IMG/VR virus record: IMGVR_UViG_2724679134_000002
Strand: one strand, 5' to 3'
DNA length: 64,000 nt
From: an uncultured virus (IMG/VR IMGVR_UViG_2724679134_000002)
Lineage: Duplodnaviria; Heunggongvirae; Uroviricota; Caudoviricetes
Part shown: piece after piece, positions 5,503-60,161 of the stretch
Position numbering within the stretch: position 1 is the stretch's first letter
Layout of the letters: each line of letters begins with the position of its first letter
Notes under the pieces: generated by a model
The model's input: only the letters and a program-made list of their open reading frames with translations
What the model was told of the DNA's origin: nothing
The model's database searches: none
Position numbers and translations under genes: made by a program

Positions 5503-5666
5503 CTCTCCTAAATTTTAATTTGAACACAAAAAAGAGAGAAGGGGGTTAAATCCATCTCTCTCAATCTCGTGTATACTCTTGTTTACTCTGTTTTTCAACT
5601 ATGTATTTTGAATAAAATCTATATTTTAACTAGAAGTTAACCACCCCCTTAAATAATAGAGGATAT

Positions 5667-8246
5667 CTACATCATTGGTGCAACAAGACACACAGCGATA
5701 CCGAATCCACGTTCTTTTGTATAAGGAGTAGTTACCTTCATTACTGGATAACCTGTACCGTCAGTTGATTTTGATCCTTTACCTGCTTTAGGAATAATTC
5801 GATCACCGTCTTGAACTGTTTCATCAACTCTTACATAAATCTGTCCAAACATACCTACGATATTCCATTCTGGTCGTTCGGATCTTGGCACGTATTCCTC
5901 ATCAGAATTAAATTCAGGATTCTCCTTAGGCAAGCGTCTAGTTTCAGTTACTTGTGCTCCTTCTGAATTAATAAACGTTACATCAACGTCTTCATATATT
6001 AATCCTCCAAACTCATTTCTTAAATATTTACCTTGCCAATTGAATAGGGACTCGCCAAGAACAACACCTGCTGTTTCAGAAATAACACCTAAAACTTTTT
6101 CACCTAAATTAGCTTTTCTGATTTTGTCTCCTTCTAAAGTAACCATATATCCAGTAGCAATAGCTCTACCGTCAGCAGATTCGAAGTACTCTGCATAGTC
6201 AGCGAAAGTGGAAGCACCTTTAACTTGTCCAGTTAGAGTGATATTCCCGTCTTTTGCATGGAGTTGGATTTTAGTATTTGCCGTGGAAGGAGTAGAACTA
6301 GTTCCGTATCCCAGTGCTACAGTGTAACCTGTTTTATTTACCACACCTTGGGAAGCAAGTACAGCTCTTGATGAACCAGCTCCTTCTATTCTTGAGTTAT
6401 TTGATGCTCCAATTAAAGAGCGACTTCCTTCAGAGGTTGTCTTTGACCCACCGGAAGATGCAATAACAGCATTACGTGGGCCTTCTGCTTTGGAACCACC
6501 AGTTGTAGCAATGATAGCAGAAGCGTCACCAGTTGCTTGTCCGCCACCTGATGATGCCATTACAACACTAGTTTTTGTTTTAGCATAGCCAGAAGTCGTT
6601 GCAATCCTCGTTCCACCTTTGAAATTATTCGGGATAAACGAGTAAGTTTTTCCGGCAATCTTACTGGGAGTAGAGTATTTTTCACTCATAACAGAATTGA
6701 TATTAACTTGTGAGTTTGTGCAATATACACCGGTAGAGCCAGTTTTACTTGTCCCGATTAGATTTGCATTGTTGATGTTCACCGATCCAACTTTACTTCC
6801 TACAGCAATACCAACTAAAGCAGATTCATTGATTGTGACATTTGAGATATTTACATTGTCGGACTTTTGAGATCCACCGATAACATAAATATCGTTTCCA
6901 GCTGTGCTAAATCCAGAAACGGATATATTGTTTAAGTTGATATTTCTACTCTTATATTGCAAAGCAATAACAGCATTATTTTTATAATCGTAGGAAGGAT
7001 CGCCAATGGCCGTGAAGTTTGAGATGTTTACATTTCTATAGGCGGATACTACAAGCGCACGGGGATTTAAACCAGTATAGAGGTTACTGAAGATTGGATG
7101 TTTTGCAGTGCAATTCACTGCGTTTATATTATAAGCACTTGTTGAGATCGGTTCAGAAGCAAGGTGGAAACCGATATGCCTAAAATCAAATGCTCTAATA
7201 TCATTTTCAGAGTAGCAGTTGATTAAATTAACGTTTCTTGCTGCAGGTGCTCGATTATGTGCTTTAACCTCAAATCCTCTACAGTTTTTGTAACTGTAGC
7301 AGTTAACAAGCCATACATTTTTAGACCCATCATCAATTTCAAACCCATTGGAGTTCTGAGAACCATTGGGGTGAGCTGAACCATTTCCTTCATAAGCATA
7401 GCAATTTGTAATGAAAATATATTCAGAGTAATGGGTTGTAAAACCGTCATCTCCATAGTTGGTTGCAGTGCAGTTTTCAATCCAAACATATTTACTTCCT
7501 TTTGGCTGATAGTAATCTGCACCGTCTGATGAAGAGTTCCAAATAGGGGAGCTGACATCGAAGCCATGAACACCTGCATTGCGAGCGTTAACGTTCTTAA
7601 TGCGAACGAATTTAGAATTCACGATACCAATACAGTTAGCATTAGTTCCATTTGAAATTTTATTGTCTGCCTTTGATCTGTTCCAATCAAGATCTAGGTC
7701 TTCAATTGAAATATATTCGTTTCCATTAGAGTAGTCGCTATTAGTGATAACACAAGCTGTTCCTGCTGCTGTAGAATGAAGCTTGATTATAGACTGGAAT
7801 CCCACACCATAAATCTTTGTGTAAGATGGTATTTTTAATCCTTGCACCATGTAAGTTCCAGGTGGTACGAAAACTTCTCGTTTCCCACTTGCAAATGCGT
7901 CATTAAAAGCTTTAGTGTCATCTGTAACTCCGTCACCTTTTGCACCAAAGTCTTTAACATTAACACTTCTTCTAATGAATTCATTCAATGTCTTTTCAAC
8001 TAGATTGGCACCGGAAGCGGGGATTTTTGTGATGTCACCGATTAAATTTGTAACATTGTCTATGCTTTGATCTACATTCTCAAGTTTTGAATCAACAGTT
8101 CTTAATGCAGTTGAAATTTCTTTAGAAGCATCATCAAATGCTTTCTTTATCTCTGGAGCTGTATATTTAACTCCGTCAGACTTTAGTAATTCAATCGACA
8201 TGGGTACATATTGACCAGTATTCTTGTCGTAATATTTAAATCCCAT
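5667..8246 (-). CDS. yomE: Tail spike / pre-neck appendage-like beta-helix protein with C-terminal peptidase G2 autocleaving chaperone
   Basis: VNVKDFGAKGDGVTDDT (pectate lyase 3-like start), beta-helix repeats, ADYAEYFES and YVPRSERPEW..VGMFGQ chaperone motifs as in phi29 gp12. Confidence 0.85.
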   Translation of the reverse strand: MGFKYYDKNTGQYVPMSIELLKSDGVKYTAPEIKKAFDDASKEISTALRTVDSKLENVDQSIDNVTNLIGDITKIPASGANLVEKTLNEFIRRSVNVKDFGAKGDGVTDDTKAFNDAFASGKREVFVPPGTYMVQGLKIPSYTKIYGVGFQSIIKLHSTAAGTACVITNSDYSNGNEYISIEDLDLDWNRSKADNKISNGTNANCIGIVNSKFVRIKNVNARNAGVHGFDVSSPIWNSSSDGADYYQPKGSKYVWIENCTATNYGDDGFTTHYSEYIFITNCYAYEGNGSAHPNGSQNSNGFEIDDGSKNVWLVNCYSYKNCRGFEVKAHNRAPAARNVNLINCYSENDIRAFDFRHIGFHLASEPISTSAYNINAVNCTAKHPIFSNLYTGLNPRALVVSAYRNVNISNFTAIGDPSYDYKNNAVIALQYKSRNINLNNISVSGFSTAGNDIYVIGGSQKSDNVNISNVTINESALVGIAVGSKVGSVNINNANLIGTSKTGSTGVYCTNSQVNINSVMSEKYSTPSKIAGKTYSFIPNNFKGGTRIATTSGYAKTKTSVVMASSGGGQATGDASAIIATTGGSKAEGPRNAVIASSGGSKTTSEGSRSLIGASNNSRIEGAGSSRAVLASQGVVNKTGYTVALGYGTSSTPSTANTKIQLHAKDGNITLTGQVKGASTFADYAEYFESADGRAIATGYMVTLEGDKIRKANLGEKVLGVISETAGVVLGESLFNWQGKYLRNEFGGLIYEDVDVTFINSEGAQVTETRRLPKENPEFNSDEEYVPRSERPEWNIVGMFGQIYVRVDETVQDGDRIIPKAGKGSKSTDGTGYPVMKVTTPYTKERGFGIAVCLVAPMM

Positions 8247-8261
8247 CTATTAACCTCCAAA

Positions 8262-8293
8262 TAAAAAAGAGACCCGATCGAAGTCTCTTTTTT
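8262..8293 (-). terminator. Intrinsic terminator / hairpin
   Basis: AAAAAAGAGAC-CCGATCGAA-GTCTCTTTTTT. Confidence 0.6.
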
Positions 8294-9114
8294 TAATCAA
8301 TTTCATACCAAACTCCACCTGATTCTGGTGTAGTATTGGATATCACAACTTTTTGTTTTTCAGGTGCGAGATTTTCATCTTGATACCACACATAATTGGT
8401 ATTAAATGGTTCAACAGCGCTTAATAATATATCGAATCCTTCATATACTTCAGATGTCCCAATATCAATCCAATCAAAACCATCCCATCTATATACAGTT
8501 TTTGTTTCTTTTACTGCAACAGTCCACCCAATAAGGGGATTAGGGTAGGTTGATAAAATATCTGCATACGTATAAACTGATGGCTTATAAATTTTTCTTG
8601 TGTTTTCAACTACGTATTCATAATCAGAAGTAGCTTCACGACACCATTGTGTTATTTCTGCACAACGTTTAGTAACACGTTCACATTCAGCTATCCGTTC
8701 GTTCATTCTTATAATGGCATCTTCAGCTTCGTCAACTATGCCTTGAAGTGTCTCGATGACCATATTTCCTTGTCGTTTAACCCATATACGAGAAGCAGGG
8801 AAGAAGGAAGCACCTTCACCTTGATATGTAAGAGTTAGCGATTTGCCCTCATTTGTGGCATTAAAAAAGACAACTCCCATAAGGTAGTCAACCTTAAAGT
8901 AATTGTCCTGTAATTCACCGTCTTCGATTTCTCGCCACTCTTTGTTATCACCGTTTATTTCAATCCGATACTCTCGATTAGGAACTTCAGTTAATAAAAC
9001 ACGCCCATTGTACACTGTCAGTGTCTCATTGTAAGTTAAATAGGGATCATCAATTGAACCCTTTCTTTTCTGGGAAAGAGTAGGGTCATTATAAAGTTTA
9101 GGAAAATCAGTCAG
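8293..9114 (-). CDS. yomF: YomF-like tail/baseplate protein (probable CTG start)
   Basis: GGAGGTG RBS precedes an in-frame CTG at 9114 overlapping the yomG stop; 273 aa; syntenic. Confidence 0.75.
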   Translation of the reverse strand: MTDFPKLYNDPTLSQKRKGSIDDPYLTYNETLTVYNGRVLLTEVPNREYRIEINGDNKEWREIEDGELQDNYFKVDYLMGVVFFNATNEGKSLTLTYQGEGASFFPASRIWVKRQGNMVIETLQGIVDEAEDAIIRMNERIAECERVTKRCAEITQWCREATSDYEYVVENTRKIYKPSVYTYADILSTYPNPLIGWTVAVKETKTVYRWDGFDWIDIGTSEVYEGFDILLSAVEPFNTNYVWYQDENLAPEKQKVVISNTTPESGGVWYEID

Positions 9115-21077: not shown

Positions 21078-21141
21078 TTTTATTCAAAAGCAAAATCCCT
21101 CTATTGAGGAATCTTGATTCTGCATAAAAGAGGGATTTTAT

Positions 21142-22143
21142 CTAAATAAAGATTTGATTCTTTTCTTCCTCGAAATCACGCAAATCATAATGCTTAATAG
21201 TTGTTGAAACGTCTTCATGGTGGGCTACATATTTACTGATAAGTTCAATTTTGATTTTCTTCACTTCAAGCAAATATGTAATACATGAGGCTTTAAAGAG
21301 GTGAGGGTTGATGCGGCGGCCGAGGATATCAGAGAGTACATCTGAACAGAAATAGTCCGCCCATGATTCTGACATTTGTTTTGGTTGTCCGCCATACTGA
21401 GTGGTGAAGAGGTATTCATGTTCATAGCCGCGTTTTTCATGCCAAAGCTTCAGATATTCCAAGCTTTCTGTATTAATCATATACTCCAATGGTTTTCCTT
21501 CGCCTTTTCCTTTTCCAAACACCTTATGACTCATAACATAAGATTGTCCTTCAGGAATAGGGTAGTCCAATATCTCAGTTTTAAATTGAATTAATTCTGC
21601 TCTTCTGCCACCAACATTAAATGCAGTAGCGAGCCATGCCATACCAAGGTAATTCTCATCTTCCTTAAGAGTATCCATCATTAGCTTGTAATCATCATAT
21701 GTAACCTTCAGCTTTTCATATGTGATCGTTTTAGGGATTGCAGGCAATCCACGTGTGAAATTCCTAAACTTTTCATAGTTTTCGTCATCTTCTGCAACAA
21801 CATTTTCAATGTAATTGTTTAATGATGACACACCTGCTTTTTTGAGAGCAATTCCACTTGACGACATACCTCGGTTCTTTAGAAAGCTTTGATATCGGAT
21901 AAAGTCACGTTTCGTTATTTTATATAGCTTCTTACCATTTAGAGAAGTATGAACCCACCAAAAGAATTGGCGAAGGGAGGAGTGGTATTGTTTTCGTGTT
22001 TTATCACGAAATGAATGAGCATCTAAAAACTCTTGTACTAAGTTTTTATGTTCCTCGTCTACTTGATCCCACATCTCCTGGGTCACTTCAGGAAGCTTTT
22101 TTGCTCTTGTGCGGAGCATATTCTTTTCAATTGGATTGGTCAT
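21142..22143 (-). CDS. yomM: YomM tyrosine recombinase (XerD/integrase family)
   Basis: GGRRAEL (R), GKG (K), PHLFK (HxxK), AHHEDVSTTIKHY (H, Y); 333 aa from ATG 22143. Confidence 0.9.
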   Translation of the reverse strand: MTNPIEKNMLRTRAKKLPEVTQEMWDQVDEEHKNLVQEFLDAHSFRDKTRKQYHSSLRQFFWWVHTSLNGKKLYKITKRDFIRYQSFLKNRGMSSSGIALKKAGVSSLNNYIENVVAEDDENYEKFRNFTRGLPAIPKTITYEKLKVTYDDYKLMMDTLKEDENYLGMAWLATAFNVGGRRAELIQFKTEILDYPIPEGQSYVMSHKVFGKGKGEGKPLEYMINTESLEYLKLWHEKRGYEHEYLFTTQYGGQPKQMSESWADYFCSDVLSDILGRRINPHLFKASCITYLLEVKKIKIELISKYVAHHEDVSTTIKHYDLRDFEEEKNQIFI

Positions 22144-22156
22144 TAATACACCACCG

Positions 22157-22573
22157 TTATTCTGTTTTAATACCACTTGCATGTAAATCTTTTTTCGCAG
22201 CGGCAATTAATCGTCCATCCTTTAAGGATTCAGATGTATTCTTCATAAACGCACGAGGTTTCCCATAACCGTAACCATATTTATCAGGATAAGTATAGCC
22301 TTGTCCAGTCTCTACGACTGTAGCAACATCTTTACCGCTGTCTTCACGGGTGTTGTCTAAGAAAATTCCATTGGCGTGGTTTTCAATTACAAAGGAATTC
22401 TTTAAAAGAGTTGTACGTTCATACACGAGCGGGTCATAGGAGTCATACACATCAGATTGAACATGATCCTGACCCGTTTTAATCATTGACTGCTTTGTGT
22501 TTGATTGTTTTTGAATTGCCTGTTTTGCAGCGAATTCAATCATTGCTGCTATTTCTTGCATGTTCTTGGCCAT
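22157..22573 (-). CDS. yomN: YomN-like tail morphogenesis protein
   Basis: 138 aa, YERT and PRAFM motifs seen in HK97 gp10-like proteins; synteny. Confidence 0.7.
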   Translation of the reverse strand: MAKNMQEIAAMIEFAAKQAIQKQSNTKQSMIKTGQDHVQSDVYDSYDPLVYERTTLLKNSFVIENHANGIFLDNTREDSGKDVATVVETGQGYTYPDKYGYGYGKPRAFMKNTSESLKDGRLIAAAKKDLHASGIKTE

Positions 22574-23058: not shown

Positions 23059-23137
23059 TTCATTTCCTCCTTATATATCCTCTGATCTTTAAAAAAGACA
23101 CCTCAAAGGGGAGAGGTGTCTAAATAAAACTTGTATT

Positions 23138-23293
23138 TTATTTTGTGGGTGGTTCTGATGTATATGGTTCTCCTGTGATTTCCTGATATTGTTCAGGTGT
23201 GATACGGCCTACAGCTACAACATCATGAACCATTTCTTTTGTCCAAAGACCTTCATCATAGAACTTTTTAATTCGACTAAACCAGTCAATCAT
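23138..23293 (-). CDS. yomP: XkdX-family small protein (51 aa; not in ORF track)
   Basis: MIDWFSRIKKFYDEGLWTKEMVHDVVAVGRITPEQYQEITGEPY..; ITPEQYQEITG is the XkdX motif; GGAGGTG RBS. Confidence 0.85.
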   Translation of the reverse strand: MIDWFSRIKKFYDEGLWTKEMVHDVVAVGRITPEQYQEITGEPYTSEPPTK

Positions 23294-25442: not shown

Positions 25443-25514
25443 CTCTACCTCCTTAATTTGTATAAAAACTGTCTTTTATTTAAATAAAGAAGAGGGGAGA
25501 GACCCCCTCAAAAA

Positions 25515-31254: not shown

Positions 31255-31294
31255 TAAATATTCCTCCTAATTTCTATAAAAGTGTTATTTTATC

Positions 31295-32452
31295 TTAATA
31301 AAGATCTGCAACCGTCACTGAACCTTCTTGTCCAGATTCGTTAACTTCTGAATAAATATCGAAGTCTTTATTGCTATTAGTCTCAGAGGTTTGTTTCTTA
31401 AGTCTTTCAGCGATGAAGGATTGAGCGATTGCAGAGTTAATTTCAGAAATAATCTCAGTTTTAAGCTCAGTAGAAGGGGATTTAGCGAACATTTCAATTT
31501 TCTCTTTAACAACTTCTTTTTCTTCAGTTGTATAACTCGCTAAAGCTTGGTTGAGTTCTCCATGCATCTTTTCGGCTTCGGCCTTGTTTTTATATTCTTT
31601 TAAAGAGTTAAGCTCTTCATTGGCTTTGGCTTTTTCATCCTTAGCTTTTTGAACTTCTTTCTCTTTTGCTTCCGCCTTTGCTTTTTCATCCTTTGCAGCT
31701 TTAACTGCGGCATTCAACTCTTCAGTTTTTTGTTTTAAATCCTCTGCAAGTTTTTCAGCTTTTTGATTCAACTCACCAATTTCTTTGTTTTTATTATCGA
31801 GTTTATTGTTTAATTCCAATACTACTTCTTCTTGGGATTTGGCCATGGAATTGTCCTCCTTTTGTTTACTGTTTAATTCGAGTAAAATTGCGGCATCGTC
31901 AGCAGGGTCGATTCCTAAAATTGCATCACCTGTAAAGTCAAATTTCATAGGCACACGCCCTTGCTCTTTCCAACCGCCGTCATACTCAATTACATCCGAA
32001 CCTTCGACAGCTGCTATTTCAACCGAAGTCTCAGGAAAATCACCATCAAACATCTTTGACTTTAACCACTGAACAAATTTAGGGTAGCGCTGATTGTAAA
32101 GGTATCCTTCGCCGATTAACACTCTTTTTTGCTCACCGTTTACATCAATGGTGTCGATGTAACCATTGGTAGTAGTGCCAACCACTGCACTGTTTTCAAA
32201 AAGTGGAATGCCGTCCTTGACTTCAGTTAAACCGTGACCAAATGGCTCACTATTTTCATAGTTCAAGAACTCTACACAAAGTGGCATTAGCTTGATTGAT
32301 TCAAGGTTTGCGTTTATGTATTTTTCAAGCCAAGTGATACCGTTCTTATTGAATCGAGTGTTGTTCTCATGAATTTCTAGAACAACCCACTTGATGTATG
32401 TTCGACCACTAGTTTTTTTCTGATTGTTGATTTCTAAAATTGTACTTTTCAA
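31295..32452 (-). CDS. yonD: Prohead protease fused to a coiled-coil scaffold
   Basis: N-terminal domain with NKNG, GHG and ETSVEI; C-terminal K/E/A coiled coil; TTG start after GAGGAGGTG. Confidence 0.75.
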   Translation of the reverse strand: MKSTILEINNQKKTSGRTYIKWVVLEIHENNTRFNKNGITWLEKYINANLESIKLMPLCVEFLNYENSEPFGHGLTEVKDGIPLFENSAVVGTTTNGYIDTIDVNGEQKRVLIGEGYLYNQRYPKFVQWLKSKMFDGDFPETSVEIAAVEGSDVIEYDGGWKEQGRVPMKFDFTGDAILGIDPADDAAILLELNSKQKEDNSMAKSQEEVVLELNNKLDNKNKEIGELNQKAEKLAEDLKQKTEELNAAVKAAKDEKAKAEAKEKEVQKAKDEKAKANEELNSLKEYKNKAEAEKMHGELNQALASYTTEEKEVVKEKIEMFAKSPSTELKTEIISEINSAIAQSFIAERLKKQTSETNSNKDFDIYSEVNESGQEGSVTVADLY

Positions 32453-37390: not shown

Positions 37391-37426
37391 ATAGTTCTCC
37401 TTTTGTTTCTGGATAAAATTAAAGTT

Positions 37427-37576
37427 TTAATCTAATTCGTCATTGCACTTATAGCAACCAGGACAGTCACAGCCGTCACAGTCGCTATGTGGCATTCCGC
37501 ATTCATTACAACATTCACACCACGACATTCCGCATCGGTCGCACATCCATACTGATACGCCATCATCTATCCACAT
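37427..37576 (-). CDS. Cysteine-rich 49-aa mini-protein (not in ORF track)
   Basis: MWIDDGVSVWMCDRCGMSWCECCNECGMPHSDCDGCDCPGCYKCNDELD; GGAGG RBS; 11 Cys. Confidence 0.7.
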   Translation of the reverse strand: MWIDDGVSVWMCDRCGMSWCECCNECGMPHSDCDGCDCPGCYKCNDELD

Positions 37577-43794: not shown

Positions 43795-43846
43795 TAAATT
43801 TCCCCCTGACCACCACTGTCGAAATACTTATATTTCATTTTTATTA

Positions 43847-44026: not shown

Positions 44027-44303
44027 TTTACACCTCCTCTATCAATCTGTATTTTTATTATATACTTATATTTTACTTTTGTCTATGGATTTTTGAGCTG
44101 ATTTTAATCCAGCTTAACTAATACAAATATCTCTTTGATATCACACTTCAATATTTCTGCGATTAAGAAGGAAAAAGGGAACACAGAAATTAAAGTGGTG
44201 ATTTTTCAAGAGAGCTACCTATATTGGCTGCTTTTTTATTTTTATCAATATTAATGTAACTTTCCAAATATTTAAACGTTCTAAATTATGAAGGTGGGAT
44301 TCA

Positions 44304-45906: not shown

Positions 45907-45945
45907 TCAAACGCTAAAGGGGAATCAACTTCTCCTTTAGTTACT
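45841..45945 (-). ncRNA. SR6-like antisense antitoxin RNA (ends approximate)
   Basis: Minus-strand TGATATAAT extended -10 at 45952-45960; hairpin 45914-45940; terminator-like hairpin plus T-run inside the yonT 3' end; same layout as SPbeta yonT/SR6/yoyJ. Confidence 0.65.
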
Positions 45946-45959
45946 ACCCATATTATATC

Positions 45960-46175
45960 ATGATCAAGCACAATGTAAACATGAAACGATTCTCGTTATG
46001 GTTCACACATATTGGATTCATTGGCTTATTCTTAATGTTTCAACTCATTAAGGATTATTTCAGCAGCGGAACACAGACACTAATCACGACAACCTTTATA
46101 GTCACATGTATCATTATCATTCTGTTATGGTTCATGTATTTTGTATTCCTTAAGATAAGTAACAAGTCACACTAA
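45960..46175 (+). CDS. yoyJ: YoyJ-like small membrane protein (SR6-regulated in SPbeta)
   Basis: Two TM helices directly downstream of yonT. Confidence 0.7.
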   Translation: MIKHNVNMKRFSLWFTHIGFIGLFLMFQLIKDYFSSGTQTLITTTFIVTCIIIILLWFMYFVFLKISNKSH

Positions 46176-46219
46176 TCATATATGCCTCATGATATACTAA
46201 TTTTATTGAGGTGAGGTGA

Positions 46220-46381
46220 GTGGAGAAAAAGTTCCTGGATGCTATCGAACAGCTTGCCAAGGAATTGGACATGCTCAATAAAGATATTGATTCAATTAAT
46301 GAAACAACTGTTAAGATTGATAAATATCTTTTAAGATTCAAGGAAGAGATAAGTTAAGTTAAACAGGATGATTCTAAATAA
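46220..46381 (+). pseudogene. yonU: yonU-like gene cut short by a TAA at 46355-46357
   Basis: MEKKFLDAIEQLAKELDMLNKDIDSINETTVKIDKYLLRFKEEIS*VKQDDSK*; YonU-like sequence appears to continue past the first stop. Confidence 0.6.
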
Positions 46382-46474
46382 CGAGTTATAACAGTTAAAT
46401 ATCGAATTCTAGATAAGGAGCGGTAAACAGTTATCGTTCCTTTATTTTAAATATAAATAATAAGGGGATAATAA

Positions 46475-47707: not shown

Positions 47708-47748
47708 AAACAATATGTATGAAAACAAAAGCAATAAACCGATTTTAA

Positions 47749-47770
47749 AACCCTTGGTACATAAGGGTTT
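47749..47770 (+). repeat. 22-bp AACCCTT-N8-AAGGGTT site, exact inverted copy of 41240-41261
   Basis: AACCCTTGGTACATAAGGGTTT. Confidence 0.85.
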
Positions 47771-47930
47771 AAGAGATGTCTCTCGTAGAAGGAAAGGTGT
47801 TAATTATTTAATAAATAAAATAAGAAAATGGGGGTGCTGCTAATTGTTCAAAACGGTTCGTTCCTCACCTGAACAATTTTTGCTCACACCACCCCCAAAC
47901 CCCCTCATGAGCAACTTATATTCATTGTTC

Positions 47931-48014
47931 AAAAATAAAAAATAAGTATAAATAATGGTTGATTATTTAAACTAATCATGTATAATGAAATTAACAAATA
48001 CAAAATATAAGTAT
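47931..48014 (+). promoter_or_regulatory. sigA-like promoter bracketed by two AAAWAYAAAAWATAAGTAT boxes
   Basis: TTGATT at 47959, TATAAT at 47981; boxes at 47931-47949 and 47996-48014. Confidence 0.7.
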
Positions 48015-48043
48015 ATAAAAACAAGTGAATGGAGAGGTTGAAA

Positions 48044-49915: not shown

Positions 49916-49971
49916 ACTAATAGGGGATGGGAAAACATCTCATTCCCTAAGCCAAAAAGGGGGAACAAAAA

Positions 49972-51609
49972 ATGTTTAAAGATAATTCGGATTTTTATCC
50001 AACACCACCACAGATAATCCGAAAAATGACATCTAAAGTAGAATGGAAGTACATAAACTCTGTTCTGGAGCCGTCAGCAGGCAAAGGGAACTTAGCAGAA
50101 GCCATTTACACTCAATTTAAAAACACCAGCAACTATAGAAGGAATTCGAAATATGACATTGATACAATTGAACAAGATGAAAACTTACGGCACATACTTA
50201 AAGGCAAAGATTACAGAGTGATAGCAGATGACTTTTTAACGTTCAGCACTTACAAGAAATACGATTTGATTTTTATGAATCCACCTTTTAGCAGCGGTGT
50301 TAAACACTTATTGAAGGCGATTGAATTAATTGAGAAGCAACAAAGATCCGGCCAGATTGTTTGCTTGCTAAATGCCGAAACATTAAAAAATCCGTATTCA
50401 AATGCCAGGAAATTTCTCATACGTAAACTAGAAGAAATAAATGCAGAAGTCGAATACATTCATAACGGTTTCCAGGGTTCAGAGCGAAGCACAGAAGTTG
50501 AAACAGCACTAATTTACATAAGCATTGAAAAACAAGAATATGACAGTGTTCTAATAGAAGAATTGAAAAAAGATGAGTCCCATAAAATCAGTGCCGATTA
50601 TAAAGCAACACAGTTAGTGAATGCAGACTTTATAAAAGGGATTGTAGAACAGTTCAATTATGAAATTAAAGCGGGTTTAAAATTAATCAATGAATATAAC
50701 AGTTTAAAACCATTAATGCTGCATAGTTTCAATGATGACAGTACTCCAATATTGAAGCTGCAAATTGATAAGAATACCGAAGAAAATGACATAGAGAATG
50801 CATATTTAAAACAAATTAGGGCGAAGTATTGGAATACGTTATTTAACAATGATCAGTTTATGGGGCTCTTTACAAGCAACCTGAAACAAAAGTATTTGCA
50901 GCACGTTGAGGAATTAAAAGATTATGACTTTTCTTTGTTCAATATCTATACATTAAGAATTCAGATGAGCAAAGAGATGACGCAGGGCGTAGAAGATACA
51001 ATACTTAATCTTTTTGAAGAATTTAGCCACAAGCATTACTATGATGAATCCTCAAAAAATGTGCATTTATATAATGGGTGGAAAACAAATAAATCATATA
51101 AAATTAATAAAAAAATAATTATTCCATTGAACGTGTATAGCTGGCTAGATGGTCGGTATAATCCAACAGACTATAAGGTCTTAGAAAAGTTGAAAGATAT
51201 CGAAAAAGTTTTCAATTATCTTGACAATGGATTGACAGAAGACATCAATATTGTTGAAACTTTAAAATTAGCTGAGCATTATGGGGAGACGAAAAAAATA
51301 GAGTTAAAGTACTTCTATGTAACTTTTTATAAAAAAGGGACATGTCACATCGAGTTCAAAGATATGGAAATTCTAAAGAAATTTAATATCTTTGGCAGCC
51401 AAAAGAAAAACTGGCTTCCTCCTTCGTATGGCAAGGTAAAATATCAGGATATGACGGCAGAAGAAAAAGACGTAATCAATGATTTTGAGGGTGCGCAATC
51501 TTACAGTGATACGGTAAATAACGCTTCTTATTATATCTTGGATACATCGAAGCTTCTCATGCTTACATCGAACTCTAGTGCGGGGCAAGCAATGCTGTAT
51601 TTTAAGTGA
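49972..51609 (+). CDS. SAM-dependent amino-(N6-adenine-type) DNA methyltransferase, DUF4942-like
   Basis: DFYPTP, VLEPSAGKG (SAM binding), MNPPF (catalytic), FYKKGTCHIEF C-terminal motif. Confidence 0.85.
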   Translation: MFKDNSDFYPTPPQIIRKMTSKVEWKYINSVLEPSAGKGNLAEAIYTQFKNTSNYRRNSKYDIDTIEQDENLRHILKGKDYRVIADDFLTFSTYKKYDLIFMNPPFSSGVKHLLKAIELIEKQQRSGQIVCLLNAETLKNPYSNARKFLIRKLEEINAEVEYIHNGFQGSERSTEVETALIYISIEKQEYDSVLIEELKKDESHKISADYKATQLVNADFIKGIVEQFNYEIKAGLKLINEYNSLKPLMLHSFNDDSTPILKLQIDKNTEENDIENAYLKQIRAKYWNTLFNNDQFMGLFTSNLKQKYLQHVEELKDYDFSLFNIYTLRIQMSKEMTQGVEDTILNLFEEFSHKHYYDESSKNVHLYNGWKTNKSYKINKKIIIPLNVYSWLDGRYNPTDYKVLEKLKDIEKVFNYLDNGLTEDINIVETLKLAEHYGETKKIELKYFYVTFYKKGTCHIEFKDMEILKKFNIFGSQKKNWLPPSYGKVKYQDMTAEEKDVINDFEGAQSYSDTVNNASYYILDTSKLLMLTSNSSAGQAMLYFK

Positions 51610-51655
51610 AAAAATAAAATAAAATGCATATTTTAAACAGAATGGAGAGATTAAA

Positions 51656-51898
51656 ATGAATCAAAACACAATGGGCAACTTAGGAGAGATTAGGCAGTTA
51701 CAAAATAAATTAGCATTAAAAAGAGTTAAATTATCGTCTGTTGAGTTAAATGATGAGGAATTAAACAAAATTGATGAAATGCTATCAGATTTTGATACCG
51801 TACTTAGAAATTTGTCTTTAAATAAAAATGCATTAAGAGATTATCAATTTGGCGGTTTATTGAGTGTTTTAGAAGACATGAAGAAAAAGAATTATTGA
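51656..51898 (+). CDS. Hypothetical protein
   Basis: 80 aa, GGAGAG RBS, bounded by two 28-bp sites. Confidence 0.7.
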   Translation: MNQNTMGNLGEIRQLQNKLALKRVKLSSVELNDEELNKIDEMLSDFDTVLRNLSLNKNALRDYQFGGLLSVLEDMKKKNY

Positions 51899-51935
51899 TA
51901 AAACAACAATTTTACATATACAGGAGAGGAACTTT

Positions 51936-52322
51936 ATGGAGGAAAAGGATAAAAGGGATTATTGGGCTTCACTAAACAAAAAAGAGAAGTTAATCGTCAC
52001 TCAGTTATTGAAAAAGCGCCCATATACAAGAAAAGGGAACAGATCATACACGAGGTTATACGATTTTGATGGAAATTACTACTGCCCTATCAGTGACATA
52101 TGGATAAGCAAGGACTTCCTTGAAGATATTTTCCGAGCGATGGAATCTGATGAAAGGTTCAAAACCTTTGGTTTCAATTATGACACTGATACAAAACTTT
52201 ATGAATTTGAAATAAACAATTATGAGGGCGATTATCTTAGTTCTTCCGATAAAAGGCTTGAAGATGCTGTTGTCAACACCACATACCAAATGTTGATTAA
52301 TATGAAGGAGGATCTCAAATAA
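51936..52322 (+). CDS. Hypothetical protein
   Basis: 128 aa, AGGAGAGG RBS. Confidence 0.7.
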   Translation: MEEKDKRDYWASLNKKEKLIVTQLLKKRPYTRKGNRSYTRLYDFDGNYYCPISDIWISKDFLEDIFRAMESDERFKTFGFNYDTDTKLYEFEINNYEGDYLSSSDKRLEDAVVNTTYQMLINMKEDLK

Positions 52323-52567
52323 TGGCTAAATGTAATGATTGTGGTAACGAACGTTTTTTCTACCTAGAGGTGTCGGTGTCAGCTAAACAACTCATTGATA
52401 CAACAGGTGGAGCAAGGAACGGAAAGATTTATGATGTAGACTATTCAGATTCAGGGATAGACAATATCTTCAATGAAGGTAGTTTCATTTGCAAAAAATG
52501 TGAATCAAGAAACGTTGAACATGAGGATGGAGAAGGTGACTATAGGTTATACAATAAATCTGAATAA
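52322..52567 (+). CDS. Small zinc-ribbon protein
   Basis: CNDC...CKKC; AGGAGG RBS; stop codon lies inside a 28-bp site. Confidence 0.72.
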   Translation: MAKCNDCGNERFFYLEVSVSAKQLIDTTGGARNGKIYDVDYSDSGIDNIFNEGSFICKKCESRNVEHEDGEGDYRLYNKSE

Positions 52568-52615
52568 AACAGCAGTTTCAAACAGACAAGGGGGATTGAA
52601 ATGAAAGCGTCAAAG

Positions 52616-53392
52616 TTATTCAAATCTAAATCCGATTCCGCCATCTACAATAATGTTTTGTCCCGTAACAAAAGATGCATCATCAGAAAGGAGCCATTTT
52701 ACTGCTTTTGCTGCTTCGAACGGATCACCAATTCTGCCTAGCGCATTTAACTTTTGATAGGATTCATTTAGCTTTAACTTTTCCTCTGAAGATAAGGTTA
52801 AGAATTTTTCTTCTAGCATAGACGTACGAAATGCACCTGGACAAAGAGAGTTAATCCTTATATTTTTATGACCATATTCTTGAGCAACTGATTTCGTCAA
52901 AGCAATAACACCGCTTTTTCCAGCAGCATACACGCCAGTTCCTGCCGAACATAAGAGAGCATCCATTGAAGATGTATTAACAATGACACCACTGTTTTGT
53001 TTTGTCATCACTTGTAGCTGATATTTCATACAAAGCCATACACTCTTCAAAGTAACATTAATTAAATGGTCAAAGTCTTCTTCCTTAAACTGATGTGTAG
53101 CATTAGAGGGAGCCTCCGCGTTCGCCGCGTTATTGAAGCCAATATCTATCTTCCCAAATGTAGAGTATGTTTGGTTAACAAGGTGTTTGACATCCTGACT
53201 ATTCGTTACATCTGTTTTAATAAAAGTGGATTTAGGTGACCACTTTCTTAATGTAGAAAGGGCTTCTTCTCCTTTTTCAACACTTCTAGAGGCAATAACA
53301 ACATACATGCCTTCTTTTGCTAATAATTCTGCTGTAGCAAAACCAATGCCCGATGTTCCACCTGTAATGATACCTACCTTTTCTTCAAACAT
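52616..53392 (-). CDS. Classical short-chain dehydrogenase/reductase (SDR)
   Basis: TGGTSGIG, NNA, NTSS, YAAGK, NSLCPG, VTGQNIIVDGG; ATG 53392 after AAGGGGAG. Confidence 0.92.
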   Translation of the reverse strand: MFEEKVGIITGGTSGIGFATAELLAKEGMYVVIASRSVEKGEEALSTLRKWSPKSTFIKTDVTNSQDVKHLVNQTYSTFGKIDIGFNNAANAEAPSNATHQFKEEDFDHLINVTLKSVWLCMKYQLQVMTKQNSGVIVNTSSMDALLCSAGTGVYAAGKSGVIALTKSVAQEYGHKNIRINSLCPGAFRTSMLEEKFLTLSSEEKLKLNESYQKLNALGRIGDPFEAAKAVKWLLSDDASFVTGQNIIVDGGIGFRFE

Positions 53393-53587
53393 ATATTTCT
53401 CCCCTTCTGAGTTCAATGAAATCCGAATAGATTAATTCTATCAAATTTTCGGAACTTTTTTTAGAGAAAAACAAGAAAATGAGGGTATGATGTGATGCTT
53501 TAGCACAGCAGGTTAAATAGGATGGTCTTAGTTGTATGCTTTGGTTGTATAATTAAGGTAAGATTACTTTGAAAAGGAGAAATAAAT

Positions 53588-53782
53588 ATGAAACAATTTC
53601 GATTTAAGGGTACAGTGGTGTTATTAGATAATGAATTGTGGTGTGTAAAAGATGAAAATAGCGTAATTCAAGATGCAGGTGAGTTATTAACCGGAATTGA
53701 TATATTAACGGAAAATAATGTGCCAGGCAGCTTTGAACTAATTGAAGGTGATGAAATTGAAGTCATTGTTAAAAGAAAATAA
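53588..53782 (+). CDS. Hypothetical protein
   Basis: 64 aa, AAAGGAG RBS, upstream TATAAT. Confidence 0.65.
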   Translation: MKQFRFKGTVVLLDNELWCVKDENSVIQDAGELLTGIDILTENNVPGSFELIEGDEIEVIVKRK

Positions 53783-53844
53783 ATTGAACATTTCACATTA
53801 ATAAAATAAAACAAGTCTTTTATTCTAAAAGAGAGATGTGAACA

Positions 53845-54543
53845 ATGGTAAATGTCTTAACTAATATCTTGAAAAATGACAGATTGGATGAATATCCATT
53901 ATTTAAAAAGTTTTGTTTTCTCAAAGAAAAAGGGTTACGTAAGGGATCCTTTAAAGCATTATCTTCCTTTATTGATGAAGCAAAGACGTGGGATAATAAT
54001 GCACAACAAGATTTCGCTTGTTGGCTATTTACTTTATTTGAAACATCAGATGATATTCACCATATACTCGTTCATCCTTTGGAAAAGGAACTTTTAAAGC
54101 CTTTACTTGAGGTATGGATGAAGAGTAATCCCGAAGATCCGAAGCCATATAGGTGGTATGGCGTGTTTTTAAATGCTGAAAAACCTGTCGATTACTTAAA
54201 CAATGCACTTAGACTTGGTGGCAGCAATGAACAATTATCCTTATTAACGCTAATCGATATAAATTTGAACGGCCTTTGGTATTCATTTCATCATATATCC
54301 GAAGATTTGTATCTTGGCGATATTAAAGAAGATACAGCACTTATTACTAAGTCACTGCAGTTAAACAACAAGGTAGAATGTCAACAAACAAGAAATAACA
54401 ATAGCGAAGCACTTAACTATTATCAAGATCTGTTGAATGACTGGGTGTTGTTTAAAGAAAAACAATCAAAGGGATTTATTGAATGGTGTGAAAATAAGGG
54501 TAGAAATTATCATTGGGTCAAAGCTTATTATTACGAAAAATAA
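53845..54543 (+). CDS. Hypothetical alpha-helical protein
   Basis: 232 aa ORF directly after a 28-bp site. Confidence 0.72.
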   Translation: MVNVLTNILKNDRLDEYPLFKKFCFLKEKGLRKGSFKALSSFIDEAKTWDNNAQQDFACWLFTLFETSDDIHHILVHPLEKELLKPLLEVWMKSNPEDPKPYRWYGVFLNAEKPVDYLNNALRLGGSNEQLSLLTLIDINLNGLWYSFHHISEDLYLGDIKEDTALITKSLQLNNKVECQQTRNNNSEALNYYQDLLNDWVLFKEKQSKGFIEWCENKGRNYHWVKAYYYEK

Positions 54544-54878
54544 CAATTGAGTGTAGCTTTTTTGTTAATTGCAAGCTTGTTTTAATTTTAAATAAAAACC
54601 ATTTGAATTAGACAGTTTAATCTTGAATTGATCTTGCTTTGGCGACTGTCAGAAAGCTATACAGAGACGAATTGGAGAGGTATCCAAGGTAGCTATTGGA
54701 TAAAGTATGCACATACCTAAACATCGAACTGCATGAGTTGTTGATATTTCAAAAAGACAAAATCGTATCGATCGTTCCGGATGAAAATGGTATACTAAAG
54801 TTACATAGTTAGGAAGGAATTACAAATTTTCTAGGTCTACATAAAATCATACTTTCACAGAGAATAGGAGAGGTTATA

Positions 54879-55115
54879 ATGCAAAATACAGTAAAAGTAA
54901 CTTTCAATGTAAACGGAGTAGAAATCAAAACAAAAGCGGGTGTACCACAAATGCCAAACGGTATTAATGCAGATAATATGATTGTTTTGCATGCCAAAAG
55001 AAATTTGGAGAAAAATCTCGGGATTGATATTTATGAGGTTATGAATGCAGAACATTATGATGATATTGAACATCTCGTTACTATTGACAAATCAGGCTAT
55101 CCTCAAGGTGTTTAA
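54879..55115 (+). CDS. Hypothetical protein
   Basis: 78 aa, AGGAGAGG RBS, flanked by two 28-bp sites. Confidence 0.72.
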   Translation: MQNTVKVTFNVNGVEIKTKAGVPQMPNGINADNMIVLHAKRNLEKNLGIDIYEVMNAEHYDDIEHLVTIDKSGYPQGV

Positions 55116-55172
55116 ATAAAATCATTCTTTTAAAGAGATTATCAGTCAAGAAATATACGGTTGGAGGGTTAT

Positions 55173-55733
55173 ATGAACATAGATTTTAAAATTACAGAAC
55201 TTCTTACATTACCTGCGGCGATTATGACAGCCATATCAATAGCAAGTGGTATCCTTCTTTTTTCGCCGCTAGCATTCTTAGACAAGTTGTTTATGCTTGG
55301 TTTTCGAGAAAAATATGGATTCATTATTGGGCTTGTATTTTTGCTTTCTGTTTCTATATTAATCGTTAATTTAATTATTCAAACATTCAAAACAATCTCT
55401 AAAAATAAAATTCAAAAGGAGTTTTATGCTACTGCTGAAAAACGTTTGCGTGAACTTACTATTTTACAAAAAGCGATAGTTTATGAATTATTTAAACAAG
55501 ATGATCGTACTTTGCCATTACCTATTCATAACGGTGCAGTTATTGAGCTTGAACAGAATCTGGTTATCGGTAAAGCAGCTTCGCAGTACTTTGTTGAAGA
55601 CCTGAATAATGCATCTATTCCCTATCATCTTCAGCCTTGGGTATCTGGTGAATTAAATAGTAAACCTGAGTTATTATATGATTTTGAGGAAGCTTGTAAA
55701 ATACAATATGATAAAGAAAATAGTTTTTGGTGA
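55173..55733 (+). CDS. Probable superinfection exclusion protein B (SieB) family membrane protein
   Basis: Two N-terminal TM helices (..SGILLFSP..KYGFIIGLVFLLS..) then RLRELTILQKAIVYEL..NGAVIELEQNLVI domain. Confidence 0.65.
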   Translation: MNIDFKITELLTLPAAIMTAISIASGILLFSPLAFLDKLFMLGFREKYGFIIGLVFLLSVSILIVNLIIQTFKTISKNKIQKEFYATAEKRLRELTILQKAIVYELFKQDDRTLPLPIHNGAVIELEQNLVIGKAASQYFVEDLNNASIPYHLQPWVSGELNSKPELLYDFEEACKIQYDKENSFW

Positions 55734-55801
55734 CAAAAATAAAATTAAGTCTGTTGTATTACCTATTTTTGTTCCGCATTTTAAAGGGAGGGTGAAGACT
55801 T

Positions 55802-56029
55802 ATGGCAGCCAAAATGATAACTGTCTGGTACAAATACGATGATAAAGGCAACAAAGCCAAACTGAATCATATTGAAGATGGATGGGCGAACGGAGAATAT
55901 CCAATGCCAATAGATACGTCGTTCACAAATCAAGAAGCGTGGAAGAAAAGTGATTGGGAAAGGAAACATGCTTACTTAGATGAACAATACCAAGTATTGA
56001 ACGTTCCACCAGCAAATTGGATTAAATAA
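55802..56029 (+). CDS. Hypothetical phage protein
   Basis: 75 aa, GGGAGGG RBS. Confidence 0.7.
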   Translation: MAAKMITVWYKYDDKGNKAKLNHIEDGWANGEYPMPIDTSFTNQEAWKKSDWERKHAYLDEQYQVLNVPPANWIK

Positions 56030-56041
56030 TGAATGGAGTGA

Positions 56042-56284
56042 ATGGTTTTGTCAGATCCAATTAGATTCTATCACATTAAAACTGATGAAATTTTCATGGT
56101 ACATATGAGAGAAGAAACATACATGAAAATCGCGGAAAAAGGAAGTAAATATTACGACCTGTGCAAGCACTTAGCTTACTACGGTTGGCGACCTGGAGAG
56201 GAAGAAGAATTAAACGAAATAAAATCGAAATATAAAAAAGTTGAATCATTTAACGAGTTTAGTGGATTAGCTGATCGAATCTAA
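56042..56284 (+). CDS. Hypothetical protein
   Basis: 80 aa, GGAG RBS. Confidence 0.65.
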   Translation: MVLSDPIRFYHIKTDEIFMVHMREETYMKIAEKGSKYYDLCKHLAYYGWRPGEEEELNEIKSKYKKVESFNEFSGLADRI

Positions 56285-56334
56285 AAATTTTTATAAAAGA
56301 AGTAATTTAAAGAGAAATAAAAAGAGCATTGATT

Positions 56335-56526
56335 TTAAATGCTCTTTTTCATCCCACATCGCCGACACTCACGTAAGAACTGACCACTCTTTACTGAGCT
56401 TTTGAACAACGCATAATCACAATTATCGCAGCGTCCAAACTTTACATCTGGATACTCCTTATAATCATAAATTACTGAGATATCATAACCGTTTGTCTCA
56501 TAATTTTCTTCCAAATGATCACCCAC
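56335..56526 (-). CDS. Small zinc-ribbon protein
   Basis: CDNC...CRRC; ends in a bidirectional terminator at 56319-56349. Confidence 0.6.
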   Translation of the reverse strand: MGDHLEENYETNGYDISVIYDYKEYPDVKFGRCDNCDYALFKSSVKSGQFLRECRRCGMKKSI

Positions 56527-59622: not shown

Positions 59623-59652
59623 AATCAAAAACAATTGTTTTAAGGAGTTATT

Positions 59653-60078
59653 ATGAAAAACACATTTTTATATATTAGATGGGAAGACCTACATGGTGAA
59701 ATAGGTGTTGATTCTTTCAATCTTCTTAAAGCCAGTTACTCTAATTTGACTGTAAAAGAACTTGTGGAATTAATTAAAGAATTGATTTATGAAGAACGTG
59801 AGGATGTTGCTGCGAAATGCGACTTTATTTTAAGTGAAGATAATCCAGTGTTTAATGATCGTCAACATGTAATTTACAAAGGGATAGCAGGAAGCATAAA
59901 CTACAAAGACTTGTTGCTTTCTTTAGCAACTACACTGGACATGACTAATAGTTTTGATCACGCGCAAAATGTTCTTTACTTTGCTAAGTGTTTAAGAAGT
60001 TTTGATAGAGAGATCTGCGACAAATTTGTAAAAGATATCGCCGAAGAGGTTTATCACAATCTAAAACATGGTGCATAG
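59653..60078 (+). CDS. yopJ: YopJ-like protein
   Basis: 141 aa directly upstream of aimR; AAGGAG RBS. Confidence 0.65.
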   Translation: MKNTFLYIRWEDLHGEIGVDSFNLLKASYSNLTVKELVELIKELIYEEREDVAAKCDFILSEDNPVFNDRQHVIYKGIAGSINYKDLLLSLATTLDMTNSFDHAQNVLYFAKCLRSFDREICDKFVKDIAEEVYHNLKHGA

Positions 60079-60133
60079 ACGGAAATATGAAGAGGTAATA
60101 ACTACTGCACAATGAGGGTTAACCCTCATTGTG

Positions 60134-60161
60134 TCTAAATAAAATAAGAATTTTATTTAGA
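60134..60161. repeat. Perfect copy of the dispersed 28-bp 11-6-11 palindrome
   Basis: TCTAAATAAAA-TAAGAA-TTTTATTTAGA; at least 14 related copies elsewhere (see findings). Confidence 0.9.

Follow-up and report, generated by a model that had tools for sequence, protein, structure and literature searches.

The stretch of DNA analysed here, 64,000 nucleotides from an uncultured virus of the Caudoviricetes (IMG/VR record IMGVR_UViG_2724679134_000002; the whole stretch is called the window below), is an SPbeta-like prophage with patchy DNA identity of 84-90% to SPR, phi3T, SPbeta and others. Scattered between its genes are copies of a 28-bp dyad, in which two inverted 11-bp arms enclose a 6-bp centre; the innermost five base pairs of each arm form, with the centre, a 16-bp core of the pattern TAAAA-N6-TTTTA. 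An original prediction, made from the letters of the window, took these sites for a gene-cassette shuffling system worked by a phage tyrosine recombinase. Here, we show that homology between relatives of this phage ends at the outer edges of the core, and we argue that the dyad is probably a place where a conserved, symmetric phage protein docks and where neighbouring genes are replaced around a fixed joint.

Dyads in the window and its relatives

A pattern search recovers all 11 perfect cores at the starts listed earlier, against a mean of 1.04 in 100 dinucleotide shuffles (largest 5, none reaching 11), a figure that bears out the initial estimate of about one chance core per 64 kb. With genes called by a simple greedy open reading frame (ORF) rule, which placed 89% of the window in 79 ORFs, all 11 cores lie in the 7,411 nt of intergenic DNA, where 0.21 are expected (largest 3 in 1000 shuffles), and the coding DNA holds none where 0.78 are expected, so that the motif is not equally common inside coding sequences (CDSs). 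By this ORF map every perfect core (11/11) is intergenic or touches a stop codon only, as had been claimed, the stop of a neighbouring ORF being abutted or overlapped at 23138, 37427, 51898 and 55115. Cores with at most one mismatch number 28 against 21.7 expected, a count reached in 12 of 100 shuffles. Because one-mismatch cores alone are at chance level, whole 28-mers were scored with a matrix built on 42 perfect-core sites from the window and SPbeta, in which the arms are scored and the 6-bp centre is neutralised. Six degenerate copies had been proposed: those at 52565, 54842 and 56294 score 19.5, 12.2 and 12.7 bits, and their orthologues in relatives have perfect cores, whereas those at 59627, 45274 and 53780 score below 8 bits with this matrix and are unsupported. 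The window holds 14 credible dyads, six in a minus-strand late cluster and eight in a plus-strand early run (51.6-60.2 kb). This accessory run, singled out beforehand as the densest, is real, with eight credible copies and not about ten.

Oriented by gene direction, the 42 sites give the consensus TYTRRATAAAA-N6-TTTTAWWYARA, 28 bp with two symmetric 11-bp arms and a 6-bp centre, and the 11-6-11 layout noticed at the outset stands. Within the centre there is a slight symmetric bias, towards K at the first base and M at the last. The usual order is stop codon, dyad, about 8 nt, ribosome-binding site and start, on whichever strand is transcribed, with the dyad about 20-30 nt ahead of the start codon; in SPbeta, at nine sites or more, the core's TAA doubles as the stop codon. 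Perfect cores number 34 in SPbeta, 35 in SPR, 30 in phi3T, 36 in Goe12, 31 in Goe14, 36 in SPbetaL3 and 37 in BUCT082, the seven complete relatives used throughout, as against 0-2 in each for a reversed, non-complemented control pattern. By the CDS table of its record, 30 or 31 of the 34 SPbeta cores are intergenic. In a host-background check on 12 other genomes the strict pattern gave 0-7 matches per strand against 0-2 for the control, and a scan of viral contigs with it found 48 stretches on about 43 contigs, most of them over 80 kb.

The arms vary independently of each other across 65 distinct sites. Pairing beyond the core amounts to 187, against 191.6 ± 7.5 with right arms permuted (p 0.75); position -5/+5 reads C-G in 17 sites, C-A in 14, T-A in 15 and T-G in 14; and position -1/+1 is unpairable in half of the sites (A-A in 28, T-T in 6). 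There is therefore no hairpin kept up by selection. Half-sites that vary in this way would fit protein half-sites on duplex DNA and not a hairpin, and two half-sites one helical turn apart are what would be expected of a two-fold symmetric protein bound to duplex DNA.

The six dyads of the late cluster begin at 5607..5634 (perfect core 5613-5628; 25.9 bits), between ORFs 5667-8246 and 4477-5502, and the core and centre of this site are found unchanged in SPbeta at 24128. The dyad at 21119..21146 (perfect core 21125-21140; 25.2 bits) lies between convergent ORFs, and the earlier observation that it stands 1 nt from the stop of the yomM homologue (21142) is exact. It has a counterpart in the same place after the YomM homologues of SPbeta, SPR, phi3T and several distant genera, and in SPbeta about 400 extra bp begin directly after that counterpart. 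Further on, the dyad at 23119..23146 (perfect core 23125-23140; 22.7 bits) overlaps the stop of the minus-strand ORF 23138-23293, and that at 25457..25484 (perfect core 25463-25478; 25.5 bits) precedes, on the minus strand, the ribosome-binding site of ORF 25083-25442 by about 10 nt; each has homology on its left flank only in 7/7 relatives. The dyad at 31271..31298 (perfect core 31277-31292; 22.3 bits), between the minus-strand ORFs 31295-32473 and 30790-31254, has both flanks in common with 3/7 relatives and neither flank with the remaining four. The cluster closes at 37408..37435 (perfect core 37414-37429; 24.9 bits), upstream of the minus-strand ORF 37193-37390, with a site whose centre is the same in SPbeta at 57148.

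The early run opens at 51614..51641 (perfect core 51620-51635; 20.3 bits), 10 nt past the point where ORF 49972-51609 stops and 20 nt short of the start of ORF 51656-51898. It continues with a dyad with weak outer arms at 51893..51920 (perfect core 51899-51914, immediately past the stop at 51898; 10.0 bits), and then with one at 52559..52586 (one-mismatch core 52565-52580; 19.5 bits) that overlaps the stop of ORF 52322-52567 and whose counterpart in SPbetaL3 is a perfect core with the same centre. The dyad at 53801..53828 (perfect core 53807-53822; 20.1 bits) stands 22 nt before the start of ORF 53845-54543. A variable slot follows on the plus strand (54864..56287), about 1.46 kb between two conserved dyads. 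Its left border is 54836..54863 (one-mismatch core 54842-54857; 12.2 bits), with a perfect-core counterpart in SPR and left-flank-only homology in 6/7 relatives. Its right border is 56288..56315 (one-mismatch core 56294-56309; 12.7 bits), with a perfect-core counterpart in SPbeta at 73669, right-flank-only homology in 5/7 relatives, a terminator-like hairpin at 56319-56349, and likeness to SPbeta and SPR that starts at 56293. The slot holds ORFs 54879-55115, 55161-55733, 55802-56029 and 56042-56284 and a dyad of its own at 55111..55138 (perfect core 55117-55132; 23.7 bits), 1 nt past the stop at 55115, with 28 nt left to the start of ORF 55161-55733. In BUCT082 and phi3T the two bordering dyads enclose unlike DNA, of 942 bp and 1011 bp, and the equivalents in SPbeta (2.1 kb) and SPR (2.4 kb) are each unlike the BUCT082 and phi3T fills. 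The last dyad, at 60134..60161 (27.4 bits) and upstream of aimR, is a perfect 28-bp palindrome, as first described. It is followed by a site like SPBRE, an operator of these phages (60170-60184), and by a promoter-like site (60192-60220); both its flanks are shared with one relative, the right only with three, the left only with one and neither with two.

The longest gap in an otherwise dyad-dotted genome is a stretch of 12-14 kb (37436-51613 in the window, 57164-69423 in SPbeta), which spans yonK-yonO, the pac/opening region and yonR-yonX-like genes. The yonO homologue of the window is one 838-aa ORF (41278-43794). In phi3T (50903-53810; phi3T_59, phi3T_60) and SPR (67148-70055; spr_84, spr_85) it is annotated as two ORFs about 350-415 nt apart, a split that could reflect an intervening sequence or a frameshift.

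Breakpoints, the 6-bp centre and replaced segments

The window and its seven relatives were compared pairwise with blastn. At junctions between co-directional genes with gaps of 0-120 nt, a breakpoint was scored where the 150 nt on one side were more than 80% covered and those on the other side less than 10%. Breakpoints in at least one of seven comparisons occur at 108 of 124 junctions with a dyad and at 221 of 552 without (odds ratio 10.1; counts that are not independent, as weighed below), and the claim that the sites mark gene and module boundaries is borne out. Genome by genome the odds ratios run from 4.3 to 18.5; counted per comparison, the figures are 277/450 at dyad junctions and 622/2228 at the others. 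In a local control against the nearest non-dyad junctions, the rate was 0.68 at dyads (227 dyad junctions) versus 0.385. Within the window, 7 of the 14 dyads have homology to at least one relative on one flank only.

Contigs assembled from public RNA runs, with small shares, were used only for where a relative's contigs stop matching. These lose their likeness to the window at 51616, 52559, 53822, 54855 and 60132, all at dyads, and the loss is exact at 52559 (the first base of the 28-mer) and 53822 (the last base of the core). The same contigs replace 56268-56334, a segment that includes the dyad at 56288, and also stop away from dyads, at 55811, 56504, 56640, 57204 and 60479.

Pairs of sites that share one flank locate the break to the base. 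Among 126 distinct left-flank-only pairs, identity is about 0.9-1.0 up to the last core base (position 21) and drops at position 22; it is 0.53-0.81 in the right outer arm (random site pairs 0.31-0.84) and about 0.4 further out. In 121 right-flank-only pairs it is about 0.35 before the site, stays near-random across the left outer arm and rises to about 1.0 at the first core base (position 6). These alignments place the end of homology between relatives exactly on the outer edges of the 16-bp core. The breaks had been expected inside the 6-bp spacer; they do not fall there, and the spacer remains with the site. Since the breaks lie at the core edges and the centre is kept, what stays is the 16-bp core, centre included, and what changes is the DNA from the outer core edge outwards.

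The centre is identical in 81/98 left-only and 88/104 right-only distinct pairs, where random site pairs share 1.87 of 6 bases; a different centre is found in about one pair in six. A few dyads are hybrids, with the left arm of one site and the centre of another joined within the left TAAAA (SPbeta 87593/phi3T 80184, SPR 115961/Goe14 105335 and BUCT082 78973/SPbetaL3 131530). Compared with SPbeta 87593 and 88394, the site at phi3T 80184 combines the left arm of the yoqG-side dyad of SPbeta with the centre of the SPbeta yoqI/yoqJ dyad; to the right, its flank resembles neither of these SPbeta sites, and the centre has therefore travelled with neither neighbour.

Conservation of the centre was measured in 23 orthologous families that share both flanks and have three or more members. 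The per-site pairwise difference is 0.029 in the 6-bp centre, compared with 0.10 in the left 30 nt, 0.23 in the right 30 nt, 0.06-0.10 in the outer arms and 0-0.006 in the core 5-mers. The centre varies in 3/23 families and the flanks in 21/23, and the centre is less divergent than the flanks in 18 families and more so in 3 (p 0.003). No two dyads of one genome have identical centres in either orientation in any of the eight genomes, where simulation gives 6.9 such pairs; by a rough hand estimate over 60 distinct centres, the genomes being related, about 2.7 shared pairs are expected (p about 0.07). The comparisons show a centre that differs between loci yet is conserved within each locus, a combination that is unexpected for a mere spacer.

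Insertions and deletions were sought in the eight genomes as simple indels, contiguous in one genome and with at least 150 nt extra in the other. None of 88 has a dyad at both ends and 29 have one at one end; in a stricter run (n=83) the counts are 0 with dyads at both ends, 23 at one end and 60 at neither. The 29 one-ended cases are at chance level because dyads stand at about 18% of junctions. By comparison, there are 30 replaced segments with dyads at both ends, among them the window slot 54864-56287.

YomM and YopP as candidate readers

The YomM homologue (21142..22206, minus strand, 354 aa) is Cre/Xer-like. Pfam gives only a weak N-terminal SAM-like match. The best single-sequence match among solved structures is Cre (E 0.002, residues 48-210), and this alignment runs across a residue that we take to be Cre's first catalytic arginine. 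A profile of 12 YomM homologues matches the catalytic domain of archaeal XerA (4a8e) with an E value of 7e-7; in that alignment the lysine hairpin, the histidine and the tyrosine match, and the H-x-x-R of XerA stands opposite H-L-F-K. R201, K238, H302, K305, H330 and Y340 are invariant in 12/12 sequences, down to 61% identity. Judged from these alignments, YomM has the core-binding and catalytic domain architecture of the Cre/Xer type, and five of its six catalytic residues appear to be kept under selection. Identity of the protein to its counterparts is 92-93% for five relatives, SPbeta and phi3T among them, and 63.5-63.8% for Goe12 and Goe14. A recognisable dyad also follows yomM in the distant carriers B. 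glycinifermentans, B. pseudomycoides and Nanhaiella, and a degenerate one in B. pumilus and some Paenibacillus. Among the 5-6-5 inverted repeats of nine distant yomM loci, TAAAA-N6-TTTTA is the most frequent; 16 copies were counted where a rough estimate for such A+T-rich DNA gives about 3. The neighbours of the gene in the late operon are tail and baseplate genes, unusual company for a recombinase-like gene.

The YopP/SroD homologue (62738..63820, plus strand, 360 aa), a member of the tyrosine-recombinase family in the sro operon, matches Pfam Phage_integrase at 35.1 bits and the SAM-like domain at 39.4 bits. YopP comes in two types that are 32% identical, one in SPbeta, SPR, Goe12 and Goe14, the other in phi3T, SPbetaL3 and BUCT082; the window's homologue shares 65% identity with the SPbeta type and only 32% with the phi3T type. 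Its box II reads H-S-F-K in the window and the SPbeta type and H-S-L-R in the phi3T type; in the first two, lysine takes the place of the second catalytic arginine. YopP is a poor candidate reader because it is only 32% identical between phages that have the same dyad. Co-occurrence does not separate the two proteins, since YomM is present in 7/7 relatives and YopP in 7/7 relatives and in 10/12 distant YomM carriers. By its conservation and its adjacency to a dyad, YomM is the best candidate for the putative dyad-binding protein, and YopP a weaker one.

Readings of the dyad and comparison with known systems

We propose that the dyads are family-wide double-stranded DNA sites, two inverted 11-bp half-sites (TYTRRATAAAA) about a 6-bp centre, found after the stop codon of a gene and ahead of the ribosome-binding site of the gene that follows, and that they would dock a conserved two-fold symmetric (dimeric) phage protein, with YomM as the best candidate. 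As fixed genome joints for gene replacement, they would keep the core and the locus-specific centre in place while their neighbours change. The joint could either be made by an enzyme acting on the site or merely be kept by selection while the neighbours are replaced. We put the probability of this reading, in which a conserved symmetric phage protein docks on the duplex and the site is a fixed joint around which genes are replaced, at roughly 0.55.

Several observations weigh against it. The junction test confined to the window is a small sample (3/4 dyad versus 7/23 non-dyad junctions, p 0.13), and the counts from all eight genomes are not independent, coming from related sequences in which the same events appear in several pairs and from simple ORF calls; because the same events recur, the p-values overstate independence, and at least 36-38 distinct loci stand behind the breakpoint counts. 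Where both flanks are homologous, identity jumps by at least 5 points at 73/170 dyads and at 477/1525 other junctions, a modest odds ratio of 1.65. Simple indels show no preference for dyads. Among laboratory hybrids of phi3Ts and SPbeta, the authors, in the part of their account available to us, place 15/16 crossover sites in homologous regions. The parental switches of Hyb1-3 lie inside identical blocks of 1.4, 4.8 and 18.2 kb, so that the crossovers cannot be placed, and ordinary homologous recombination thus suffices for reassortment. No strict-pattern dyad was found in 4/10 genomes with 60-66%-identical YomM homologues. Finally, the second catalytic arginine of YomM is replaced by lysine (K305, H-x-x-K) in 12/12 sequences. 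A separate observation on the hybrids is that their identity blocks end at dyads at 4/6 ends (Hyb2 104626-106033 and 119039, Hyb1 31968, Hyb3 29369), which restates the natural pattern.

The dyad could instead be a pure regulatory operator, at which a dimer of phage or host origin sits at each junction, for example as a roadblock or silencer, and with which breakpoints coincide through selection on expression units. The strictly intergenic position of the dyads about 20-30 nt ahead of start codons, the independent variation of the half-sites and a centre that is conserved within each locus, where it could tune affinity, are all what an operator would show, and the accessible literature on SPbeta-like phages describes a second repressor, SroE. 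In the accessible part of the work on MrpR/YopR, this repressor binds SPBRE at ten promoters, and chromatin affinity purification with sequencing (ChAP-seq) gave ten peaks, all of them SPBRE promoters (Kohm et al. 2023, PMC10516654). Only a few of SPbeta's 30-odd dyads, those beside SPBRE promoters, are near one of the peaks described there. Dyads also occur inside the single YonO-driven late operon, and the breaks are not spread over the 10-25 nt before the ribosome-binding site, over half of them being no more than 1-2 bases from the core edge, a precision that selection alone does not readily explain. We regard the operator as possible, though doubtful as the whole explanation.

A more specific form of the joint, which we hold to be rather improbable, is a set of about 35 heterospecific lox-like joints, whose arms would bind a Cre/Xer-like enzyme (YomM being the best candidate) and whose 6-bp centre would serve as a per-locus address. 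Recombination would take place only between joints with the same centre, and co-infecting or resident SPbeta-like phages could swap modules at fixed points while their gene order stays intact and none of their own DNA is deleted. This model would explain why centres are unique and are conserved over their flanks, why breaks lie at core edges and why there are no dyad-to-dyad deletions. The weak excess of divergence jumps at dyads counts against it, as does an R-K-H-K-H-Y active site of uncertain activity.

The mechanism put forward at the outset, in which a tyrosine recombinase (YomM or YopP) cuts the spacer and inserts, excises or swaps single-gene cassettes between different sites in an integron- or pdif-like manner, appears unlikely. 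It draws on the 11-6-11 layout, on recombinase-family genes in every relative examined (YomM and YopP each in 7/7), on the dyad adjoining yomM, on the 30 segments replaced between dyads and on the few hybrid dyads, such as SPbeta 87593 versus phi3T 80184. The indels speak the other way: none of 88 is bounded by dyads on both sides and the one-ended cases are as frequent as at random gene boundaries, so that integron- or pdif-like hopping, with cassettes inserted and excised as units, is unsupported. Breaks at the outer core edges with the spacer kept (81/98 and 88/104) do not suit a cut in the spacer. Canonical enzymes of this kind require identical overlaps, and since no centres are shared within a genome, such enzymes could not recombine its dyads with one another. 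Nor do symmetric arms provide pdif-like polarity, and an attC-like folded structure is lacking, the arms showing no covariation.

That the dyad acts in RNA, as a hairpin in polycistronic messages for processing, stability or translation, is very unlikely. The position between stop codon and ribosome-binding site in the direction of transcription, on both strands, would suit such an element, and some copies (60134, for example) could pair over 11 bp. Compensatory changes are absent in the 65 sites, however, pairing outside the invariant 5 bp being at the level of permuted arms and the -1/+1 position unpairable in half of the sites; this excludes an RNA or single-strand hairpin maintained by selection. 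Moreover, a stem of five A-U pairs with a 6-nt loop is thermodynamically very weak, and the palindrome is present on the DNA irrespective of the strand transcribed.

The SPBRE operator of MrpR/SroF and the promoter of YonO share with the dyad that they are dispersed intergenic elements of SPbeta, and dyad and SPBRE stand side by side upstream of aimR, yorE and yosX; identity with either can nevertheless be dismissed almost entirely. The motif found upstream of nine of the ten SPbeta genes listed by ChAP-seq, about AAATACAAAWAATATGTATA, is unlike the dyad, and the window has an SPBRE variant of its own in promoter regions at 45652, 47935, 48000, 60170 and 61896, of which 0/5 overlap a dyad. SroF boxes are phage-specific according to the accessible part of a preprint, the phi3T box differing from that of SPbeta and being read by a monomer (Chmielowska et al. 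2025), whereas the dyad is the same in phi3T and SPbeta. The two refuting possibilities raised with the original prediction, that the motif is SPBRE or a YonO promoter element, fail on these sequences for the former. For the latter they fail on the single late start site, upstream of yonK, that is mapped for YonO in the portion of the published work available (PMC5467207); given one such site, the dyads of the late cluster sit within a transcription unit.

The window's SPBRE variant, about CAAATAYAAAAAATAAGTATA (45652-45666, 47935-47949, 48000-48014, 60170-60184 and 61896-61910, including sites upstream of aimR and the sro operon), has a counterpart at the same kinds of promoters in SPbeta, AATATGTAT, and the difference suggests that the MrpR/SroF homologue of the window phage reads a slightly different box. 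In SPbeta (AF020713) a consensus dyad with a good ribosome-binding site lies at 111023-111050, 150 nt inside the annotated yorM CDS (110881-111597), and no SPBRE is found upstream of the annotated yorM start, though an MrpR peak is reported for yorM; possible explanations are a wrongly annotated start or the presence of two genes.

Two further candidates were rejected. Sigma-70-type promoter matches at 44-64 kb are at chance level (94 versus 93.5 in shuffles), none of the best lies at a dyad, and in a scan of the same region only the dyad at 56288 stands beside a terminator-like hairpin, which rules out a sigma-A promoter or a terminator. Cre-like circularisation of a terminally redundant infecting genome is ruled against by the dyad-free pac region: the accessible published data place the pac/opening point between yonR and yonP, and its surroundings are free of dyads to a distance of about 7 kb, both in SPbeta (57148 to 69424) and in the window (37.4 to 51.6 kb).

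SPbeta has been a model phage for 50 years and its lysis-lysogeny circuitry is intensely studied, yet a site with 30-37 copies per genome is apparently undescribed. Literature searches by motif and for SPbeta repeats or mosaicism, supplements aside, found no published account of the dyad, the motif matching only an unrelated archaeal regulator, and the accessible part of a comparative SPbeta paper mentions no palindrome or motif. The dyad offers a base-precise landmark for the swapping of accessory and defence genes in large temperate phages, and it suggests a concrete candidate mechanism, a conserved dimeric reader that may be YomM. If the address model were true, the dyads would amount to a natural multi-site, order-preserving recombination system, of relevance to phage evolution and as a toolbox of orthogonal sites.

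Of known elements, the promoter-early stem-loops (PeSLs) of T4-type phages resemble the dyads in being, in the accessible description, short conserved intergenic repeats between small non-essential genes in plastic regions, at which replacements between close relatives start and stop (Arbiol et al. 2010, PMC2839356), as they do at dyads (108/124 versus 221/552 junctions). PeSLs as described there combine a sigma-70 promoter with a terminator hairpin and, by PeSL-PeSL exchange, yield deletions and mini-circles; dyads lack a promoter signal above chance and a G+C stem, bound 0/88 indels on both sides, and have a strict two-fold layout with a locus-specific, conserved centre.

The dyads also recall integrons in that they, like attC sites, follow the stop codons of small genes in arrays. 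In integrons the small genes of an array lack promoters, and attC is a longer imperfect palindrome, which IntI, next to attI, recombines as a folded single strand. The dyads are only 28 bp long, show no arm covariation (187 versus 191.6, p 0.75) and come without cassette indels as units; the recombinase-family genes of the window are not at the head of dyad arrays, and no array-adjacent integrase or attI was seen, Pfam not separating IntI from its relatives. The sites of Xer systems are closer in shape. In pdif the XerC and XerD arms are unlike, which gives polarity, and modules are flanked by oppositely oriented sites, whereas the dyad arms follow one symmetric consensus. The accessible account of pdif modules on Acinetobacter plasmids (Mindlin et al. 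2019, PMC6449649) describes sites of the same 28-bp 11-6-11 layout that are numerous in accessory regions and have accessory genes lying between them. The pdif sites described there flank mobile modules found in many contexts, and the modules between dyads do not come and go as units (0/88).

The dyads are comparable to lox sites too, in that they have shared arms and centres that are unique per genome and kept per locus, and YomM has its best match in Cre. In Cre/loxP, inverted arms surround a short centre and lox variants recombine only with sites of the same centre. P1 carries one loxP site, however, compared with about 35 different dyads, YomM has lysine at the second arginine, and recombination by way of dyads is hypothetical. 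SPBRE, dispersed and intergenic in the same phages as the dyad, differs in the accessible accounts by being asymmetric, bound by a monomer at about 10 promoter sites and different in its box between phi3T and SPbeta, while the dyad is symmetric, has 30-37 copies per genome, stands at operon-internal junctions and is the same across phages. At the same time SPBRE provides a precedent, since in those accounts it is bound by a recombinase-fold protein without catalysis, a recombinase-like reader of a dispersed site (PMC10516654; Chmielowska et al. 2025).

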